Of a stretch of DNA of 64,000 nt, positions 20,421 to 62,566 are shown one piece after another. Numbering within the stretch: position 1 is the first letter of the stretch; the number at the start of each line of letters is the position of its first letter. The notes beneath the pieces were generated by a model that worked only from the letters and a program-made list of their open reading frames with translations, did no database searches and was not told where the DNA came from. The position numbers and the translations under genes were made by a program. Source of the DNA: a phage; sequence record PV357171.2. One strand, 5' to 3'.

Positions 20421-21378
20421 ATTTCGCAGCTCTAGCCAAGATTCTATCAATGTCGCCTTGAGATAGCTTCTCGACTTCACGAAAGTAAAGTTCAAGTTCA
20501 CCTAGCATATCAAGATCAACAAGATTTAACTTAGCATCTTTAGTAACTCGATGGTTAATCTTCTTATCTAATAAATCAGAGTCTTTGATAGACTTTAATT
20601 GAACAACGTCACCAGTAACTTCATAGACTACACGATCATAATCACTAGGTTCCATCTCTTCACCAGCTCCGATTGTTTTACGAATCAGTTGTGGCAAATC
20701 ACCAAGTTCAATCCACTCTACTTTTAATGTATCGGTATCAATGATAAAGCAACCATTTGTACCTTTTGTGCGTTCTCTATGGAACGATGTAGTTAATGGA
20801 GACCCTGGGTAGAGGAGTCTAGTAGATCCGATAGTCTGGCTATTAGTATAAGAATGTAAATCGCCAGCAATTACAGTATCATAACAGTTGTACTTAGTTA
20901 GATCAATTTCTGGTTTTACATGTGGAGGGATTTCACCACGAACATGCGTGAAACATAGTTTTGATTCAGATGGTTTCCACTTAGACTTATGGATTTCATC
21001 ATATGGAACAATATCAAATTCAGGGGAACGATATGGTTTGGTAATTACTTCCCACTTACCACTCGTTACTTTATTAATAACTCCTGCATAATGATATAAA
21101 CATGAAATGGTTTTAGTTAACATTTCATGATTTCCAGTAAAGATTTTGCCTGGGTGGTCAAGTCTTGACATGAACTGTTCAAGCAGTTCTATTTCTTCTG
21201 ACGACGGGTCGGCAACATCAAGTATATCACCACCAGCAATATGAAGATCACAGTTATGATTATGGAATATATCATTTAACCGTTCTCCTAGCATTAGGAA
21301 GCGACGCTTCTGCCATTCCTTTGGAACTTTATCTTGTCCTAGTTTGATATGATGATCAGCACTAAATAATATTCTCAT
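20401..21378 (-). CDS. SbcD/Mre11-like nuclease (D12-like)
   Basis: N-terminal calcineurin-like phosphoesterase motifs (DHH, GNHE); paired with SbcC-like gene. Confidence 0.7.
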   Translation of the reverse strand: MRILFSADHHIKLGQDKVPKEWQKRRFLMLGERLNDIFHNHNCDLHIAGGDILDVADPSSEEIELLEQFMSRLDHPGKIFTGNHEMLTKTISCLYHYAGVINKVTSGKWEVITKPYRSPEFDIVPYDEIHKSKWKPSESKLCFTHVRGEIPPHVKPEIDLTKYNCYDTVIAGDLHSYTNSQTIGSTRLLYPGSPLTTSFHRERTKGTNGCFIIDTDTLKVEWIELGDLPQLIRKTIGAGEEMEPSDYDRVVYEVTGDVVQLKSIKDSDLLDKKINHRVTKDAKLNLVDLDMLGELELYFREVEKLSQGDIDRILARAAKYVKDYN

Positions 21379-21383
21379 TGGTT

Positions 21384-21406
21384 AAAAAGAAAGGGGCCGA
21401 AGCCCC
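21384..21406 (-). terminator. tetraloop hairpin terminator on minus strand
   Basis: GGGGC-UUCG-GCCCC on the minus-strand RNA followed by U-run, between two minus-strand genes. Confidence 0.5.
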
Positions 21407-21414
21407 TCTATTTA

Positions 21415-22188
21415 TTAGTCGTCCAGATCGCTTGCAGCTTCTGTGTCAATACCTTTCTGGGAGCCTGCATTGCTATTACCAGATTTGGCATCATCATCTT
21501 TATTCTCACGACCCTCCATGAAGGCTAGAATTGCTTCTTTCTGCTCTTCATAGGTAGGGACCGGATAGGTTTGTTCCAGAGAAGGAACTTTTTCGAACTT
21601 AATGATGTCGCCATCTTCGTCACACATAGCTTCACCGATCAGATCTACATCCGCAGCATATTGCTTAGATTCCGCACTGTTAGGATCTTGCAACTTAATC
21701 TGGAACTGCATAGCAGCAATCTGCTGTACATCATACTCAGTATCGAAACCTTTACCTTTTTTCTCGATAGAAATATCAATATCAAACGGAGTTGCCAGGC
21801 TCAACTGCTTCATGATAGACTGGATGCCTTTCAGAATAGTAGCCTTGACTTCCATTACTTTCAGTTTGTTATCAGAACGGTCAATAACAAAAGCGATATA
21901 GTTTTTCTTCGGTTTCAGCGGAACACGATTACCATCTTTATCCAGCTCTTTCTCGAAGAAGCCCATCTCATGAACCGGATCAGCTTTACCACGAACAAAG
22001 CTCTCTTTGTCACGGTTAAAACGGAGACATTCGAAAGGAGCTACGCTACCCTCTTTATTAGTCAGCCAATAGACATAACGTGGAAGAACACCAGAAACGA
22101 TACGAACACGAGTGATACCGTTGTTGAACTTCAGGAATTCGATTTTATCGTTAGAACCGCCAGTAGTTTCGCCCCAAGACTTAGCCAT
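21415..22188 (-). CDS. hypothetical protein; possible ssDNA-binding protein
   Basis: 257 aa with strongly acidic C-terminal tail (…ASDLDD) as seen in phage SSBs; inference only. Confidence 0.35.
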   Translation of the reverse strand: MAKSWGETTGGSNDKIEFLKFNNGITRVRIVSGVLPRYVYWLTNKEGSVAPFECLRFNRDKESFVRGKADPVHEMGFFEKELDKDGNRVPLKPKKNYIAFVIDRSDNKLKVMEVKATILKGIQSIMKQLSLATPFDIDISIEKKGKGFDTEYDVQQIAAMQFQIKLQDPNSAESKQYAADVDLIGEAMCDEDGDIIKFEKVPSLEQTYPVPTYEEQKEAILAFMEGRENKDDDAKSGNSNAGSQKGIDTEAASDLDD

Positions 22189-22465
22189 ATTTTATTTCCT
22201 CTTTAAAGATTAATTTCGATTTGTTAATTGCGATTAGTGGGTTAGTGTCGATTACTAAACGTGGTATCCATACTGGAACATATTGCATGTCCAAGCTAGG
22301 ATCGTTTGTAAACTTGTATTCGGCATAATTTCGTAGACTTAAAATTCCTAGATATTCTGCCAGTTGTCTATTAGACAATTTATTTGGATTATCAACTATC
22401 GTTGATTCATTCAAAATGAATGAGGAACCTACCAATAATTGGTGAGCATCAGGCTCTGTAAGCAT
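22181..22465 (-). CDS. hypothetical protein
   Basis: 94-aa ORF downstream of two tandem early promoters. Confidence 0.4.
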   Translation of the reverse strand: MLTEPDAHQLLVGSSFILNESTIVDNPNKLSNRQLAEYLGILSLRNYAEYKFTNDPSLDMQYVPVWIPRLVIDTNPLIAINKSKLIFKEEIKYG

Positions 22466-22572
22466 TCTTTTGAATAGCTTAATAATTAGGTCGGAATTTC
22501 CTCTAGCTAGTAAGTATAGCTTTTCATAATCGAAGAATTTAATTTTTGTTTTCTCCTCGAATTTATGTATAT

Positions 22573-22602
22573 ATTATACTAGATTTCGAGAGAATTTAGC
22601 AA
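22573..22602 (-). promoter_or_regulatory. early promoter (TTGCTA, 18 bp, TATAAT)
   Basis: Reverse complement gives TTGCTAAAT...TATAATATATACATAAATT matching the window-wide early promoter consensus. Confidence 0.65.
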
Positions 22603-22673
22603 CTAAAATTTTTATTTTTCTGCTTCGGACTTTCTTATCAATCCGAAACTTTCTCTCTCAAATTTATGTATAT

Positions 22674-22702
22674 ATTATACATCATTTATGAGCTGTTGCC
22701 AA
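22674..22702 (-). promoter_or_regulatory. early promoter, second copy (TTGGCA, 17 bp, TATAAT), overlapping 3' end of helicase gene
   Basis: Same -10 and downstream ATAAATTTGAGAGAG cassette about 100 bp upstream of the first copy. Confidence 0.55.
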
Positions 22703-24038
22703 ATGCAATTTTAGCTAATTGAACTGCTTTCTCCGGAGTCATGGTAATAGTTTTCCACCCGTTGTTACGATATACTGCCATACGTCCAGAAGCCTGTCTT
22801 AGTCCAGTACCACCTTTCATAATTAGATCTACAACAATAGGGTCGAGTTTACCCTCGACAATACGTTGAACACGTCCTGCAAGCTGTTCAATAAGAGATT
22901 CATTATTAATAAGACTTCCCATTATTAAACAAGATAGCTCATTAAGGGAAATACCTTCAGAGAAGATACTCTGAGCTGCTGCAAGTACACAAGGTCCACC
23001 TTTTGCTATATCTTCCTGGATTTTTAATCGGTCATCCAAGTGGGTTGCCCCTATAATTTCATATGTTGTAACACCACGCTGTGTAAGAGCTTCTAGTACT
23101 GTTTGGATTAACTCTGTTCTATCACTTACAATGAGTACTTTATGTCCCATATTCACGTATAAATGTGCCAGGTTTATAATGGTCTCTCGATATTCAGGAT
23201 GGTTGTACACATCATTAGCACGTAACGCCCATGGTACGTTTTGGTTTCCTGATAATTCAACAGGCACGGAGTACCTATGGATTGTAGGTGCAACAGTATT
23301 ATTAACCGGCGGACTAAATATCTTATATCCAAAGAAATCTTTGAACATAACTTGTAGACCATCTTTACGTTTTAATGTTCCAGATAGTCCAATCTTATAG
23401 CGAGCACATGATATTTCTAGGAAGTTAGTGAAAGTTGTAGCCACACAATGGTGAACTTCATCAACTATAACAGTACCGAATACTTTAGAAAGATTATTCG
23501 CATGTTTATTCACTGTTTGAATATTACTGACCACAATTGGTGGATCAATATTGTATTTCCCAGAACCTATGATACCCGGTTCAAACCCAAACCATTTACG
23601 AACTTCTGCCGCCCACATTTCACGAATAGATGTGTTAGTACAAATTACTAAAGTTTTCTGGCCAAATTTATACGCAAGTGCAAGGGCTAGGATAGTTTTA
23701 CCAAATCCAGGTTTACCATTAATAATACAGGTATCATCGCATTCTTCGTATATTGGAAGCTGATCTTCTTCACGCAGTTTGAACTTAGGTTTTGGTATAT
23801 CTACCGGAGCTAGTGTGCGTTTATCAACTAATTCGTATTTTACTCCTTTAGCATCTAGTAAGTCTAGACGTGTAATAGGAATCCACTTAATCTCTTTGGC
23901 AACAACACCACTATTCTTATACATAATAGGGTATTTACTAGTCATTGTCTCAATGTGATAAGTAGTTTGCTTACTACAATAATCCCAAAGTTCATCATCG
24001 GGCTTGAAATAGGCTTTATTAGATATAACAACCTTCAT
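22686..24038 (-). CDS. SF2 DNA helicase (D10-like, 450 aa)
   Basis: Walker A GKPGFGKT, DEVH box (VIVDEVHH), helicase C-terminal motifs. Confidence 0.7.
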   Translation of the reverse strand: MKVVISNKAYFKPDDELWDYCSKQTTYHIETMTSKYPIMYKNSGVVAKEIKWIPITRLDLLDAKGVKYELVDKRTLAPVDIPKPKFKLREEDQLPIYEECDDTCIINGKPGFGKTILALALAYKFGQKTLVICTNTSIREMWAAEVRKWFGFEPGIIGSGKYNIDPPIVVSNIQTVNKHANNLSKVFGTVIVDEVHHCVATTFTNFLEISCARYKIGLSGTLKRKDGLQVMFKDFFGYKIFSPPVNNTVAPTIHRYSVPVELSGNQNVPWALRANDVYNHPEYRETIINLAHLYVNMGHKVLIVSDRTELIQTVLEALTQRGVTTYEIIGATHLDDRLKIQEDIAKGGPCVLAAAQSIFSEGISLNELSCLIMGSLINNESLIEQLAGRVQRIVEGKLDPIVVDLIMKGGTGLRQASGRMAVYRNNGWKTITMTPEKAVQLAKIAFGNSS

Positions 24039-24532
24039 AATTTTATTCTAAGTCTAGGAATTTCAGGCTCCTCTTGATGGACTTGATAAATAACAGGGCT
24101 ATTATTTACCAGAATATAGCTTATATAAGCTGGAACATAGGATAATACAAATGGATAAGGGACTTTAGCCACATAGCATTGGTATTTTCCGTTATAAATT
24201 CTAGCTGAATGCAAAACTTTAGAGGTGACAACATCATAGAACGTAGTTTTCTTCCAGTTAATAAGATTTCCATCAGAATCTATAAATTGGCTACGCTTTG
24301 ACCCAACTAATTGAGACAACATTGATATTCTGCCCCTAATAGGATAGAGCTTGTAGGGTAATTCCTTCCGTTTCTCAAATAGAATAAGCCTACGTTGAGA
24401 AAACGTGCCAGGCAACTTCCTGTTATCTAGCACATATTTATTATACCTTGTTGTAATTACGGAATAATCACCTTCTTGCTCAATTGATACAAACGCCCGT
24501 AAAGCATATACGGGCAATTTGAAATCAAGCAC
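24035..24532 (-). CDS. hypothetical protein
   Basis: 165-aa ORF translationally coupled between polymerase and helicase genes. Confidence 0.4.
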   Translation of the reverse strand: MLDFKLPVYALRAFVSIEQEGDYSVITTRYNKYVLDNRKLPGTFSQRRLILFEKRKELPYKLYPIRGRISMLSQLVGSKRSQFIDSDGNLINWKKTTFYDVVTSKVLHSARIYNGKYQCYVAKVPYPFVLSYVPAYISYILVNNSPVIYQVHQEEPEIPRLRIKL

Positions 24533-27092
24533 CGAGAATCCTTCTCACGTTATCCAAATCTTTACATACAGCAATAAACTTATCATCCTTGTATTTGCTA
24601 TGATCTGGATGCTCTTTATCCATTGCAGCTAGTTTCTTATACTCGAATTCTGCATCAAGTAATACACCCTTGACATAACGAGTATATTCATCATCATCAA
24701 TACAAGCGATTGATGGATGCTGCTTCTTCATCTTACCACAGGAGTAGTCACGAGAACCTCCAGCCTCAGAATCAGAATCAATACCAATCGGACAGCCAGG
24801 AATACTGATACCACGGTCTTTCTGAATATTACGAATCAGGATTTCATTGTATTGGTCGATCAAATCCTCACGAACAATAGCAACTACGGAGTCATGAACC
24901 AGCATAACAATCTTCATCTCGTGTTCTAAGCCAAGAGAAATGATCTCATTATCTGCATCTACAGCACCTAAAAGGAGACTATCAGAAGAAGCAGACTGAA
25001 TGATTGCGTTAAATCCAGAACGAATTTCTTCACCCTGAACGCCACGGTCTTCGGAGTGGATATTATGCAGACGACGTTTACGACCAAAGTGACTATAGAT
25101 AAATCCATGATTCTTGATCTGATCGTGGCACTTATCAATCCAACGCTTAAGCTGTGGGAATTGACCAAAGTAAGTCTCAATGTACTCTTTAGCATCTGCA
25201 ACAGTACATTCAACAAACGGTTCCCCCGTTTTGGCTGCTTGTTCGAGCAATGCTTCGTTAACAGAATGTGCTACTTTAGCCGGGCCAGAACCGTACAAAA
25301 TACCAAAGGTAATTGCCTTAGCTGCCTGACGCAGAGCTGGGAACAGCTTCTTAACATCACGAGGTTCACATTGCAATTTAAATACCATGTGGGCGATGTT
25401 AGAGTGGAAGTCAGGGTATTTATCAGGTTCATTTCTCATGTTGATAAATACTTGTTGCATATTTCTATCACCAGATAGAACAGCAGCATAATAAACTTCC
25501 GCAGTTGTTAAGTCCCATGCGATTACACGGTATCCAGGTGGTGCAACTACACAACCCTTAATGATAGATTCATCACGAGGTAACTGTTGCAGGTTCAGTT
25601 TACCAGAAGAACTCAGACGACCAGAAGTAGTCATATGCTCATGGAAGCCAGTACGAATGCAACCATCAGCATCAATGCTCAGAAGAATCTTCTCAACGTA
25701 AGTAGAGATCAGCTTAGTCAGCTTACGAATCTCTAGTAGGGTCTTAGCAATTGGATGCTGCGTAGACAATTCGTTCAGAGCTTCTGCATCTGTAGAGTCC
25801 GCTCCAGTATCTGTCAATTTACCTGTTGGAGTTAACCCAACATAATCAAACAGAAGAACACGTAGCTGCTTAACAGAGTTTGGGTTAAACGCTTCGTTCT
25901 GGTCTTTCTCTAGCTGAACGACTTCTGGATAAGTATACAGTTTCTCACGAGCTTTATTCAGATTATGGGTTAACTGGTACTGAGCTTCTTTTAAACGATC
26001 AATAGAAATAGGTACACCACGATCCTCAACACGTTGCAGGAACACGCAACCAGGCATTAGAACATCATAATACAGACTGCAAAGTTTTTCATTCTTCTCA
26101 ATTTTTGGTAAGAAGAAGTTGTGCAAACGTATGGTGGCATCGGTATCTTTTGCAGCGTAAGGCCACATAATATCAAACGGAATTAAATCATAGGTGAAAT
26201 CTTCTTTCTTGATTTTATGTGCTTTGCAATAATCCTCCTTGAACTTATCTAGTTCAAAATCATAGTCACCCATATCGGTATACTTCATTGCTAGAGATTT
26301 CAAGCCATGAGTACCACGACGCTCATCTAGAACATAATGCTGCAACATTGTATCATGGAGCCTGCGTTCTTTATGTGCTTTATCAAAAGTAAGTCCCAGA
26401 TGGTACTTATAAAAGTGCATATCAAACTTCAGGTTGTGAAAAACAATAGTGTGGTTTTCACTATCCAGAATTTTCTGGAGATAATATACTGCAACCTCTG
26501 TGAGACAATCAGAATCGATATATACACCCTGATATTCTTGGTGAGACATAGAAACACCAAGCAGATAACCATCTCGACAGTATAGTGCTGAGGTTTCGGA
26601 GTCAAATGCTACAGGTCCGATAACCATATTATACACCATCTTGATATATTCTTCCGCCTCGTCAGGGTCAGTAATAGGACGGTAATCACCAGCTTTTGCA
26701 ATCTTCTCACGACCATTGATAATATCGTGGATATTCTCTACTGTTGCATCGAAAACTGGTTTCATTTCAGGTTTAAAGTGTAACTGGGCTGGGCTGATGC
26801 TCGCAATCCAGTTAGCATATCCATTATGCTCTACACGTTTACCAGTATAGTCACCAATGCCTTTCTTACCAGCAAAGTACAGGAAAGGTTCGGCACCTAC
26901 CAGTATAACAAAATCATAATCATTCGGATCAAATGGGTTTTCCGGAGTCCCGATAGTAATATGCTTTTTGAGCAAACGACCGGATAACTTCTCATTACAC
27001 ATATGGAATACATCAACTTCCTCGCCGTATAGCTGGAAATGTTTATCGTAACGAGTGTTATTTAGAGCTTTATCAACTACTGCGATTTTCAA
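24525..27092 (-). CDS. DNA polymerase, family A, with 3'-5' exonuclease domain (855 aa)
   Basis: Exo I motif FDSETSAL, polymerase motif B (K...FGILYGSG) and motif C (VHDS); start codon is TTG at 27092 preceded by GAGGA. Confidence 0.9.
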   Translation of the reverse strand: MKIAVVDKALNNTRYDKHFQLYGEEVDVFHMCNEKLSGRLLKKHITIGTPENPFDPNDYDFVILVGAEPFLYFAGKKGIGDYTGKRVEHNGYANWIASISPAQLHFKPEMKPVFDATVENIHDIINGREKIAKAGDYRPITDPDEAEEYIKMVYNMVIGPVAFDSETSALYCRDGYLLGVSMSHQEYQGVYIDSDCLTEVAVYYLQKILDSENHTIVFHNLKFDMHFYKYHLGLTFDKAHKERRLHDTMLQHYVLDERRGTHGLKSLAMKYTDMGDYDFELDKFKEDYCKAHKIKKEDFTYDLIPFDIMWPYAAKDTDATIRLHNFFLPKIEKNEKLCSLYYDVLMPGCVFLQRVEDRGVPISIDRLKEAQYQLTHNLNKAREKLYTYPEVVQLEKDQNEAFNPNSVKQLRVLLFDYVGLTPTGKLTDTGADSTDAEALNELSTQHPIAKTLLEIRKLTKLISTYVEKILLSIDADGCIRTGFHEHMTTSGRLSSSGKLNLQQLPRDESIIKGCVVAPPGYRVIAWDLTTAEVYYAAVLSGDRNMQQVFINMRNEPDKYPDFHSNIAHMVFKLQCEPRDVKKLFPALRQAAKAITFGILYGSGPAKVAHSVNEALLEQAAKTGEPFVECTVADAKEYIETYFGQFPQLKRWIDKCHDQIKNHGFIYSHFGRKRRLHNIHSEDRGVQGEEIRSGFNAIIQSASSDSLLLGAVDADNEIISLGLEHEMKIVMLVHDSVVAIVREDLIDQYNEILIRNIQKDRGISIPGCPIGIDSDSEAGGSRDYSCGKMKKQHPSIACIDDDEYTRYVKGVLLDAEFEYKKLAAMDKEHPDHSKYKDDKFIAVCKDLDNVRRILGA

Positions 27093-32660: not shown

Positions 32661-32689
32661 GAAAAAGCCAAGAACTAGGCATTCTTGGC
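32661..32689 (-). terminator. rho-independent terminator (minus strand)
   Basis: 8-bp stem GCCAAGAA / TTCTTGGC plus T-run on minus strand. Confidence 0.55.
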
Positions 32690-32983
32690 TTTGAGTTCTT
32701 CAGCTCGTTTCTGTACTTCATGTAAAACCTCAGATTCGCTAAGAATCTGTGTAAACGCATAGAAAAGCTGTGATGTTGTTTCTAGAGTGTAAGGAAAAGA
32801 GAAGCCAGATTTCGTTGGAAACCATTCATCATTAATATCAAGAAGCCAGTAACGAATACCCATGTATAGATTCCCACGAAATTCAGATACTGTTAATCTT
32901 ACTTGTTCTCCCTCCTTCTCCCAAAGTATGATGGACTGGTCATCAACGTGTCCTTCATAGTTTTGATTTACCTGTTCGCTCAT
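32675..32983 (-). CDS. hypothetical protein
   Basis: 102-aa ORF. Confidence 0.4.
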   Translation of the reverse strand: MSEQVNQNYEGHVDDQSIILWEKEGEQVRLTVSEFRGNLYMGIRYWLLDINDEWFPTKSGFSFPYTLETTSQLFYAFTQILSESEVLHEVQKRAEELKAKNA

Positions 32984-34848: not shown

Positions 34849-34877
34849 ATTATACAGAAAAATTTTCCTGAAAGCAA
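34849..34877 (-). promoter_or_regulatory. early promoter
   Basis: Reverse complement TTGCTT, 17 bp, TATAATAGATTCATAAATTTGAGAGAGGAG. Confidence 0.6.
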
Positions 34878-34885
34878 ATAAATTT

Positions 34886-35344
34886 TTAATTTGGATAGAG
34901 TTCGGACTTAAAATTAGCCCTAACTTTTTTAGCCTCTTCTATAGTATTGCACTGCTGGTACTTACGAATAGATCCTTTCTGCATTAGCACACAATATTTA
35001 TCGCCCCTCATGTAGATATTAGGCTCGCCCAACTTATTGTCTTTACGCACATTAATATTGTGCATTTGCTTAGATCTATTGGAGTCTTCTAAATTCTCTA
35101 TAAAGTTGCAATCTTTAATCCTGTTTTTGTGGTCTATCTCTTCTGGTATGTACCCCTTATGATATAAGAATACCAGCTGATGCTCTCCCCAGTGCCTACG
35201 CTTAAACCCTATTCTTATATACCCTTTATGTTTACCCCCGGCAAACTTACCTACTAGACTCTTCTGTCTTGTTTTCTTCCATTTAAGATGGCCTGTTTCA
35301 GGATCATACTCAAAAGCCTCTCTAACCTCTTCCTGTGTTATCAT
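34886..35344 (-). CDS. HNH homing endonuclease
   Basis: GYIRIGF...HQLVFLYHKGYIP..IDHKNRIKDCNFIENLE motif. Confidence 0.7.
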   Translation of the reverse strand: MITQEEVREAFEYDPETGHLKWKKTRQKSLVGKFAGGKHKGYIRIGFKRRHWGEHQLVFLYHKGYIPEEIDHKNRIKDCNFIENLEDSNRSKQMHNINVRKDNKLGEPNIYMRGDKYCVLMQKGSIRKYQQCNTIEEAKKVRANFKSELYPN

Positions 35345-42490: not shown

Positions 42491-42519
42491 ATTATACATA
42501 AATTTTTGGCTGAAAGCAA
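42491..42519 (-). promoter_or_regulatory. early promoter
   Basis: Reverse complement TTGCTT, 17 bp, TATAATTGATTTATAAATTTGAGAGGAG. Confidence 0.6.
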
Positions 42520-42520
42520 A

Positions 42521-42553
42521 TAAAATAAAAGCCAGGTCGACTAGCAACCTGGC
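42521..42553 (-). terminator. rho-independent terminator after nrdD (minus strand)
   Basis: Stem GCCAGGT / ACCTGGC followed by T-rich run on minus strand. Confidence 0.55.
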
Positions 42554-53472: not shown

Positions 53473-53988
53473 ATGGCTAAGCAGAAAAACGCAAAAACTC
53501 AAGCAGCTCCGGCAGTTAAAACTTTCCCGAAGACTGAGGCTAATCGCAAAGCTCGGCTGGAACGTCACCTGCGTAAGCATCCTACCGATGCTCAGGCTGC
53601 GCAAGCACTGAATAATCCGGCTCCGATTCGTAAGAAGCCTAAAGCTAAAAATGCCACCCGTAAATCCTACAAAATGGTTATGTATGTAGAAAATTACGGC
53701 CACAAATCTGTCCCAGTTTCCCTGAGCTTCAACGCTGGAGCTGAATTGTTCTCTCGTAATGGTATGTCTATGAAAGACTATGAGAAGGCAGTTAACCAGA
53801 AGCGTAAACCAACAGCAGATGTATTGCGTGATACTCGTGGACAGTTTGGTTCTGTTAAGCCAAATATCTTTGGCGTAGAGTATAGTAAAGATAATGTTCG
53901 TGCTCTGTGTTACGGTGTAGGCATTAAGTTCACGGGTGATTCTGCTCGTAAATCTGCTAAACCAGCTCGTAAACGTAAAGCGAAGTAA
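53473..53988 (+). CDS. hypothetical basic protein
   Basis: 171-aa Lys/Arg/Ala-rich ORF. Confidence 0.4.
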   Translation: MAKQKNAKTQAAPAVKTFPKTEANRKARLERHLRKHPTDAQAAQALNNPAPIRKKPKAKNATRKSYKMVMYVENYGHKSVPVSLSFNAGAELFSRNGMSMKDYEKAVNQKRKPTADVLRDTRGQFGSVKPNIFGVEYSKDNVRALCYGVGIKFTGDSARKSAKPARKRKAK

Positions 53989-60725: not shown

Positions 60726-60754
60726 TTGCTTGAATGCTAAATTCTCTGTATAAT
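60726..60754 (+). promoter_or_regulatory. early promoter
   Basis: TTGCTT, 17 bp, TATAATATATTTATAAATTTGAGAGAGG. Confidence 0.65.
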
Positions 60755-62526: not shown

Positions 62527-62552
62527 ATAGCCCTCAAAGCGAGGGCTATTAT
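62527..62552 (+). terminator. hairpin, terminator-like
   Basis: 9-bp stem ATAGCCCTC / GAGGGCTAT, loop AAAGC; weak U-run. Confidence 0.4.
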
Positions 62553-62566
62553 CCAGAAAATTTCAC

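Follow-up and report, generated by a model that had tools for sequence, protein, structure and literature searches.

Why is a small gene, located directly before the gene of a single-strand DNA-binding protein (SSB), preceded by two near-identical promoter elements, and what is the role of the hairpin between them? The window, i.e., the whole stretch of 64,000 nucleotides of phage DNA that was analyzed (PV357171.2), raises this question at around 22.6 kb. The first-pass annotation explained the arrangement as a duplicated promoter-leader cassette or as the remnant of a deleted small gene. In our view, the two elements are very probably tandem sigma-70 early promoters, P31A and P31B, which feed the small gene together with the SSB gene.

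Judged by its sequence, the window belongs to a T5-like phage of the genus Tequintavirus and represents an isolate distinct from T5. A 1-kb query around the locus matched 442 phage records, the best with 98.9% identity, and the comparison with T5 gave 96.6% identity over 3.5 kb. All genes of interest are encoded on the minus strand in the order DNA polymerase (24525-27092), a 165-aa ORF next to it (24035-24532), helicase D10 (22686..24038, stop codon 22688-22686), the small ORF, SSB D11 (21415..22188), D12 and D13. D11 matches PHROG 1607 (E = 1.9e-105) and bears the same annotation in T5, while D12 and D13, beyond the SSB gene, are SbcCD-like. A terminator-like hairpin (TGCCCGTATATGCTTTACGGGCG + TTTGTATC) is found at 24494-24516 on the same strand, just downstream of the polymerase stop codon and within the first codons of the 165-aa ORF.

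The repetition of a -10 element together with a downstream element, as claimed in the first-pass annotation, is real. Exact 23-mers of the form TATAATATATACATAAATT(C/T)GAG are present at 22556-22578 and 22657-22679 on the minus strand, identical at 22 of 23 positions and 101 bp apart from start to start, each with a proper -35 element. If up to three mismatches are allowed (<=3), the window comprises six copies of the 23-mer, while 0.01 would be expected from shuffled sequences. The range originally given for the locus, 22573-22702, leaves the proximal copy 17 nt short.

The distal promoter P31A (22648..22722, minus strand) comprises a -35 element TTGGCA (22702-22697), a 17-bp spacer that holds the helicase stop codon (22688-22686), a -10 element TATAAT (22679-22674), the discriminator ATATAC and an N25-type initial transcribed sequence, ATAAATTTGAGAGAG. 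The final codons of D10 (..AKIAFGNSS*) encode its UP-like region and its -35 element. The first-pass annotation let the distal copy overlap the helicase stop, but the stop codon itself is located between -35 and -10, 7 nt upstream of the 23-mer and not within it. The proximal promoter P31B (22547..22621, minus strand) consists of an A-rich UP-like region (22621-22603), a -35 element TTGCTA (22602-22597), an 18-bp spacer and a -10 element TATAAT (22578-22573), again with the discriminator ATATAC; its presumed start site is followed by ATAAATTCGAGGAG. In a 4-kb scan, both were the top-scoring sigma-70 matches of the minus strand: TTGGCA-17-TATAAT (22702-22674) agrees with the consensus at 11 of 12 positions and obtained the highest score of all, and TTGCTA-18-TATAAT (22602-22573) agrees at 10 of 12.

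Both elements are already known. Over 75 of 75 nt each, they are identical to the features 'promoter P31A' (75467-75541) and 'promoter P31B' (75568-75642) of the T5 record NC_005859, which holds a second, shorter set labeled P-31A / P-31B as well. The genomic context is also that of T5, on the same strand and between helicase D10 and T5.125/D11 SSB. By sequence, they are thus the annotated T5 promoters P31A and P31B, ordinary members of the early-promoter family, and they do not differ from their T5 counterparts. Annotations of this kind originate from Wang et al. (2005), according to PMC10644984, and the Epseptimavirus record S114 likewise labels the locus 'promoter'. In contrast to the promoters, the hairpin and the ATT start codon discussed below are annotated neither in NC_005859 nor in any other record examined. 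In the open literature we found no mention of P31A/B, and our search delivered neither a T5 transcriptome nor transcript data for the locus; the in vivo activity of each promoter consequently rests on sequence and database annotation.

How do P31A and P31B relate to the other early promoters of the phage? A loose scan revealed about 12 promoters of the same type in the window, N25 itself among them. They have in common a AAAAATTTATTTGCT-like upstream block, a spacer of 17-18 bp that often ends with TTCTG, TATAAT, ATATT(C/T) and then ATAAATT(T)GAGAG. Common features of T5 early promoters, including the ATATT discriminator, have been described previously (Klimuk et al., 2020; PMC7472727). P31A and P31B both possess a TTGCTT-like -35 element, a spacer of 17 +/- 1 bp, TATAAT and, 6 nt past the -10 element, ATAAATT(T)GAGAG. 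The A/T-rich UP-like block is present as GAAAAATAAAAATTTTAGTTGCT in P31B and, in a weaker form, as TAAAATTGCATTTGGCA in P31A, where it lies within the helicase ORF. Their discriminator ATATA(C) matches ATATT at four of five positions, and other family members in the window deviate as well, such as the N25 copy with AGATT; ATATAC is confined to P31A and P31B within the window family. The T5 N25 promoter sequence given in bioRxiv 10.1101/042432 is found unchanged in the copy at 34854; the same paper places the N25 start at the A of ATAAAT, since ApU is the initiating dinucleotide. Homology with T5 N25 would thus place the start sites at A22667 (P31A) and A22566 (P31B). What the first-pass annotation called a downstream element is, by this sequence comparison, the N25-type initial transcribed sequence, a region well known for its effects on promoter escape (PMC12464699).

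Downstream of both promoters, the small gene was found as claimed, but its length of 94 aa presupposes a start at ATG. Comparison with relatives points to 120 aa: the homolog of T5.125 (PHROG 4258) spans 22181..22543 on the minus strand and starts with ATT at 22543, which is 23 nt downstream of the start site of P31B, with the Shine-Dalgarno sequence GAGGAG at 22558-22553. Its 3' end overlaps the start of the SSB gene by 8 nt. T5-type records, the reference included, annotate a 94-aa protein from the ATG at 22465, which on direct reading has no Shine-Dalgarno sequence, while the frame is open back to 22573. Epseptimavirus genomes carry an ATG at the position of the ATT of the window, and there 120 aa are annotated. 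In tblastn searches, the small protein aligned from residue 1 in phages of Klebsiella, Serratia, Proteus and Vibrio, and the PHROG 4258 profile was matched over positions 1-120 of 120. All sampled T5-type loci (46 locus files, which correspond to roughly 22 distinct genomes, as contigs are duplicated) show ATT, preceded by GAGGAG and an A-rich spacer of 8-10 nt, without stop codons or frameshifts. Codons 2-26 display five synonymous changes and one non-synonymous change (P = 0.002-0.012 under neutrality), similar to the 20:7 in the rest of the gene. On this comparative evidence the small gene is 120 aa long and begins with ATT 22543. It is systematically misannotated in T5-type genomes because gene callers ignore ATT starts; the T5-type protein does not occur in its 120-aa form in a collection of 15 billion proteins, and for T5-type phages only the 94-aa form is found in public databases. 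A resemblance of the distal leader TTTCGGATTGATAAGAAAG to the initial codons of the gene, TTCTTCGATTATGAAAAG, had suggested a decayed copy, which was rejected based on a local alignment against 2000 dinucleotide shuffles (p = 0.24).

The extent of the transcription unit follows from the position of terminators. The first strong terminator on the minus strand, at 21409-21390, is located past the SSB gene. This intrinsic terminator (AGAGGGGCTTCGGCCCCTTT + CTTTTT; 21390..21409) was found by the terminator scan and is annotated in T5 as a rho-independent terminator. The scan reported no terminator-like site on the minus strand between 22686 and 22466. P31A and P31B would therefore feed a unit composed of the small gene and, in second position, the SSB gene D11, and read-through from the polymerase-helicase operon can enter this unit, since no terminator follows the helicase gene. 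A replication origin at the locus, considered by analogy to the tandem promoters at the T7 origin, was rejected based on the cumulative GC skew, which is featureless at 22.6 kb, tracks the direction of transcription and reaches its minimum near 45 kb.

The hairpin between the promoters, described initially as the TTCGGA/TCCGAA repeat, proved to be present, stable and unique in the window. It is a stem-loop, GUUUCGGAUU-GAUAAGAA-AGUCCGAAGC, at 22622..22649 on the minus strand, with a 10-bp stem that includes G-U pairs and a loop of 8 nt. It occupies positions +19 to +46 of the P31A leader, directly 5' of the UP region of P31B. The sense strand folds with -14 kcal/mol (z = -6.3) while the other strand reaches only -5.3 kcal/mol, because the G-U pairs turn into A-C mismatches. 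The stem-loop is single-copy in 520 genomes. Compared with three Epseptimaviruses, the P31A leader from +1 to +62 (22606-22667, minus strand) is identical at 61 of 62 positions and the hairpin at all 28, while the flanking coding sequence reaches 89%, the third codon positions of the helicase gene 71% and the region from -35 to -10 of P31B 70%. Part of the 62-nt block owes its conservation to the N25-type start region and to the UP element that belongs to P31B, which do not, however, account for the 28 nt of the hairpin. Klebsiella phages possess the same stem with a loop of 3 nt, and in Serratia phage Slocum a stem of 6 bp encloses a loop of 6 nt. In all three cases, the window included, the stem immediately precedes the A-rich UP region of the proximal promoter.

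Is the hairpin then an RNA structure? Its variable loop spacing and its strand asymmetry favor a single-strand or RNA structure over a duplex operator. However, RNAalifold detected no compensatory pair changes among 10 variants, in an alignment in which two short-loop sequences were misaligned by MAFFT, and three isolates carry substitutions that break the stem. A structural role of the hairpin thus stays putative. Since it lacks a U-tract, the 3' tail being CAGAAAAAUAAAAA, it is not a canonical terminator, and the terminator scan reported nothing there on either strand. An Rfam scan of 21000-24500 (E <= 1) gave chance-level matches only; the best match over the hairpin was SprD, on the wrong strand, with 18.9 bits compared to a gathering score of 100 (E = 0.91). 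Sequestration of the Shine-Dalgarno sequence in the P31B leader was not significant (z = -1.7). A long-range helix between positions +6..+14 of P31A and the spacer of P31B, seen in the MFE fold, was discarded, as its partner sequence is not kept in Epseptimavirus. The 9-mer AAGTCCGAA from the 3' arm of the hairpin (22624-22632, minus strand) recurs at 34901-34909 (minus strand), approximately 20 nt before the point at which the UP region of the N25 copy begins. This second occurrence is probably due to chance, because 6 of 100 shuffles reach the same count (2 matches, 0.37 expected).

Comparison among relatives shows how the locus varies by lineage, with one, two or three promoters, or with the order promoter-gene-promoter. 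Of 530 related records, about 440 (Tequintavirus and Epseptimavirus) retain the hairpin together with both promoters. Two promoters are also present in Proteus phages, in Vibrio cholerae phage phi 3 and in two metagenomic contigs. The Klebsiella phages (L035/L068/L069) have three tandem early-type promoters between helicase and small gene (~200 nt upstream of the small gene), with the 3-nt-loop stem between the second and the third. In Vibrio phages of the Thalassavirus type, a 136-aa gene (PHROG 25412; positions 233-643 of L038, also in L076-L078 and L080), for which the window has no homolog, is found between two promoters. In the Pectobacterium phages My1 and DU_PP_V, the helicase-stop promoter is the sole one, with the small gene directly after it. 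The first-pass annotation had named absence of the distal copy from all relatives as a point that would refute its reading; the opposite was observed, as the distal promoter is present in every relative examined and it is the proximal one that is missing, namely in My1 and DU_PP_V. Since the helicase-stop promoter (AAAATTGCATTTGGCA...) is universal among the Demerecviridae lineages examined, which have 1-3 promoters per locus, P31A is probably the ancestral promoter and P31B an addition. No recombination junction inside a promoter, nor a product of recombination between both promoters, was seen among the compared loci.

Several other aspects of these loci deserve mention. In phiR2-01 (L006, ~1150-1180; TATAATATTG..), Slocum (L036, 690-703; TATAATATATG) and Klebsiella phage SEL21 (L035, 688-703; TATAATAATCATG), the proximal -10 element abuts the start of the small gene. 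Translation would therefore have to proceed from the distal transcript or, in the Klebsiella case, from a leaderless mRNA. The small gene of phiR2-01 is not annotated and apparently starts with TTG. Some Epseptimaviruses carry an HNH homing endonuclease gene at the extreme 3' end of the helicase gene (L002 768-1298 in Sw2, L003 769-1299 in GreteKellenberger and L005 670-1203 in bobsandoy), which is 5' of the upstream region of P31A and not between the two copies. Its ATG overlaps the helicase stop codon (TAAAATG), and the insertion recodes the C-terminus of the helicase from LAKIAFGNCS* to LAQEVFKA*, while the promoter downstream is intact. T5-like sequence (95-97%) is also found at the locus in records labeled as Corynebacterium phage, Campylobacter phage C13 and Listeria phage, among them PQ773600.1 and MG065692.1, which are probably mislabeled or contaminated.

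With these data the two initial explanations can be weighed. A recent local tandem duplication of the promoter-leader cassette would make P31A and P31B specific paralogs, as might be expected from cores identical at 22 of 23 positions only 101 bp apart and from a discriminator confined to this pair. However, the similarity of their flanks stays at shuffle level (local alignment, p = 0.24 downstream and 0.94 upstream), and among 66 promoter pairs of the window they rank 14th in core identity (0.82), 61st in upstream and 58th in downstream flank identity. P31A resembles the N25 copy and the one at 60749 more than it resembles P31B. Both promoters are already present in Epseptimavirus, phiR2-01 and the Klebsiella, Serratia and Proteus phages; therefore any duplication would be ancient. 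We thus regard a recent duplication as very improbable: two tandem promoters of the same direction exist, as annotated in T5, but a duplicated cassette is not supported. That the inter-promoter segment is what remains of a deleted small gene once driven by the distal promoter has a structural precedent in the Vibrio phages (Chester and relatives), where the 136-aa gene sits exactly between the helicase-stop and the small-gene promoters. A 9-codon ORF in the P31A leader might be seen as a further hint (TTG ATA AGA AAG TCC GAA GCA GAA AAA TAA; 22613-22642, minus strand). It begins in the loop of the hairpin and is kept in Epseptimavirus and phiR2-01, but is absent from Klebsiella phages and consequently probably non-coding. 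Neither tblastn nor blastn with the Vibrio gene detected a trace of it in the window. Furthermore, the 78-nt inter-promoter segment is the best-conserved part of the locus instead of a decaying one, and in My1 and DU_PP_V the distal promoter directly precedes the small gene. As the precedent is structural and not matched by sequence support, we regard a gene remnant as very unlikely.

Two further scenarios concern the hairpin itself. Transcription from P31A might stop at the hairpin after ~46 nt and thereby yield a short non-coding RNA or an attenuated leader, in which case the distal promoter would add nothing to the mRNA. The stable fold at +19 to +46 and the very high conservation of the leader fit to this idea, while the tail CAGAAAAAUAAAAA, without a U-tract, fails the terminator scan and no Rfam family matches. 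In addition, phiR2-01 and Slocum need the distal transcript to read through, given that their start codon is too near to the proximal -10 element. We consider such a short RNA unlikely. Alternatively, a dimeric regulator of P31B might recognize the TTCGGA..TCCGAA inverted repeat, which is conserved at -56 to -83 of this promoter, as an operator in double-stranded DNA. Yet the spacing of the half-sites varies by lineage (loops of 8-12, 6 or 3 nt), and the stem contains G-U pairs, with -5.3 kcal/mol for the other strand compared to -14 kcal/mol. One-sided changes (U-G to C-G and U-A to U-G) preserve the pairing of the RNA, and an operator seems extremely unlikely to us. One might speculate, with considerable doubt, that the stem-loop is a functional RNA element which gives transcripts from P31A and from read-through a fate unlike that of P31B transcripts, so that the promoters would not be redundant. 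If so, it could act for example as processing or 3'-end stabilizing site, or as operator for SSB or the small protein. Together with the weak, conserved AUU start, translationally coupled to the SSB gene, it would then tune SSB output.

Returning to the account of P31A and P31B as tandem early promoters, we propose the following working of the locus. Host RNA polymerase most likely starts at A22667 and A22566, and the N25-type initial transcribed sequence of each promoter, ATAAATTTGAGAG, would double as start of the leader and as ribosome-binding region. Both transcripts are expected to cross the small gene and D11 and to end at the terminator 21409-21390. The promoters would thereby feed a short unit of ~1.2 kb, in addition to any read-through from upstream. 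Their spacing of 101 bp leaves room, in principle, for two polymerases at once, and we infer that the likely role of the arrangement is to provide extra initiations for SSB, a protein needed in large amounts. P31B and the adjoining stem-loop would be an addition common to T5-like phages and their Epseptimavirus, Klebsiella and Serratia relatives. The stem-loop would act as sense RNA or as single strand and is not expected to be an efficient intrinsic terminator. Most likely it might form a barrier or 3'-end stabilizer for upstream transcripts, or an insulator before P31B; this is our best guess and the weakest step of the account.

As to the promoters themselves, our analysis is a rediscovery of T5 reference features that belong to one of the best-studied promoter families. 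Its additions are modest: a universal helicase-stop promoter, downstream of which the number of promoters in Demerecviridae ranges from none to two, a 28-nt stem-loop constrained above its neighboring genes, and the misannotation of the small gene.

Several known systems resemble the locus. Gentz and Bujard reportedly treated the T5 promoter P-N25 and its initial transcribed sequence in 1985. P31A and P31B share the architecture of N25 and a near-identical core (TATAAT + 6 nt + ATAAATTTGAGAGAG); between -10 and +16, P31A and the N25 copy are 89% identical. In contrast to N25 with AGATTC, the discriminator of P31A and P31B is ATATAC, and the upstream half of P31A is encoded within the helicase reading frame. 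Past +15, the P31A leader continues into the hairpin whereas N25 continues into a ribosome-binding site and ATG. In E. coli, rrn P1/P2, and in T7, phi1.1A/phi1.1B, are likewise close promoters of the same direction that feed one highly expressed unit; at P31A and P31B, in contrast to these pairs, there is no GC-skew feature, no sign of a role as replication origin and no indication that the two starts are differentially regulated. T5 itself has other annotated tandem pairs, namely P-K28b/P-K28a, 93 bp apart and upstream of ligB, and an unnamed pair at 53638/53776. Like P31A and P31B, these are two sigma-70 promoters of the same direction, ~90-140 bp apart before an early gene. In the window, the P-K28b/P-K28a pair is located at 31288-31260 and 31195-31167 on the minus strand, upstream of the ligB homolog. 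Its distal member P28b, TTGACA-17-TATACT, has no start region of the N25 type, and the two P28 promoters are not separated by a stable hairpin.

The combination of promoter and stem-loop has a parallel in T4-type phages, whose cassettes are termed PeSL, for promoter-early stem-loop (Arbiol et al., 2010, PMC2839356; Comeau et al., 2014, PMC4122927). The unit of P31B (22649-22541) follows a PeSL-like order of stem-loop, AT-rich region, -35/-10, Shine-Dalgarno sequence and start codon (compared with PMC4122927). Several other early promoters of the window have their own, different stem-loop directly upstream, at 32664-32692 (minus strand), ~42505-42530 (minus strand) and ~62540-62565 (plus strand). 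Of these, the ones at 32692-32664 and close to 42496 are genuine terminators that possess U-tracts and are fused to the AT-rich region of the promoter, and the layout of such terminator-promoter composites is like that of PeSL (PMC4122927). A mobile hairpin-promoter cassette was rejected for P31B, since the unit of hairpin and promoter is single-copy in 520 genomes. As with PeSL, the slots between the repeated, near-identical early promoters are filled differently from one relative to the next. Unlike PeSL, only the promoter core is repeated here, while the stem-loop is single-copy per genome and without U-tract, and the phage families are unrelated.
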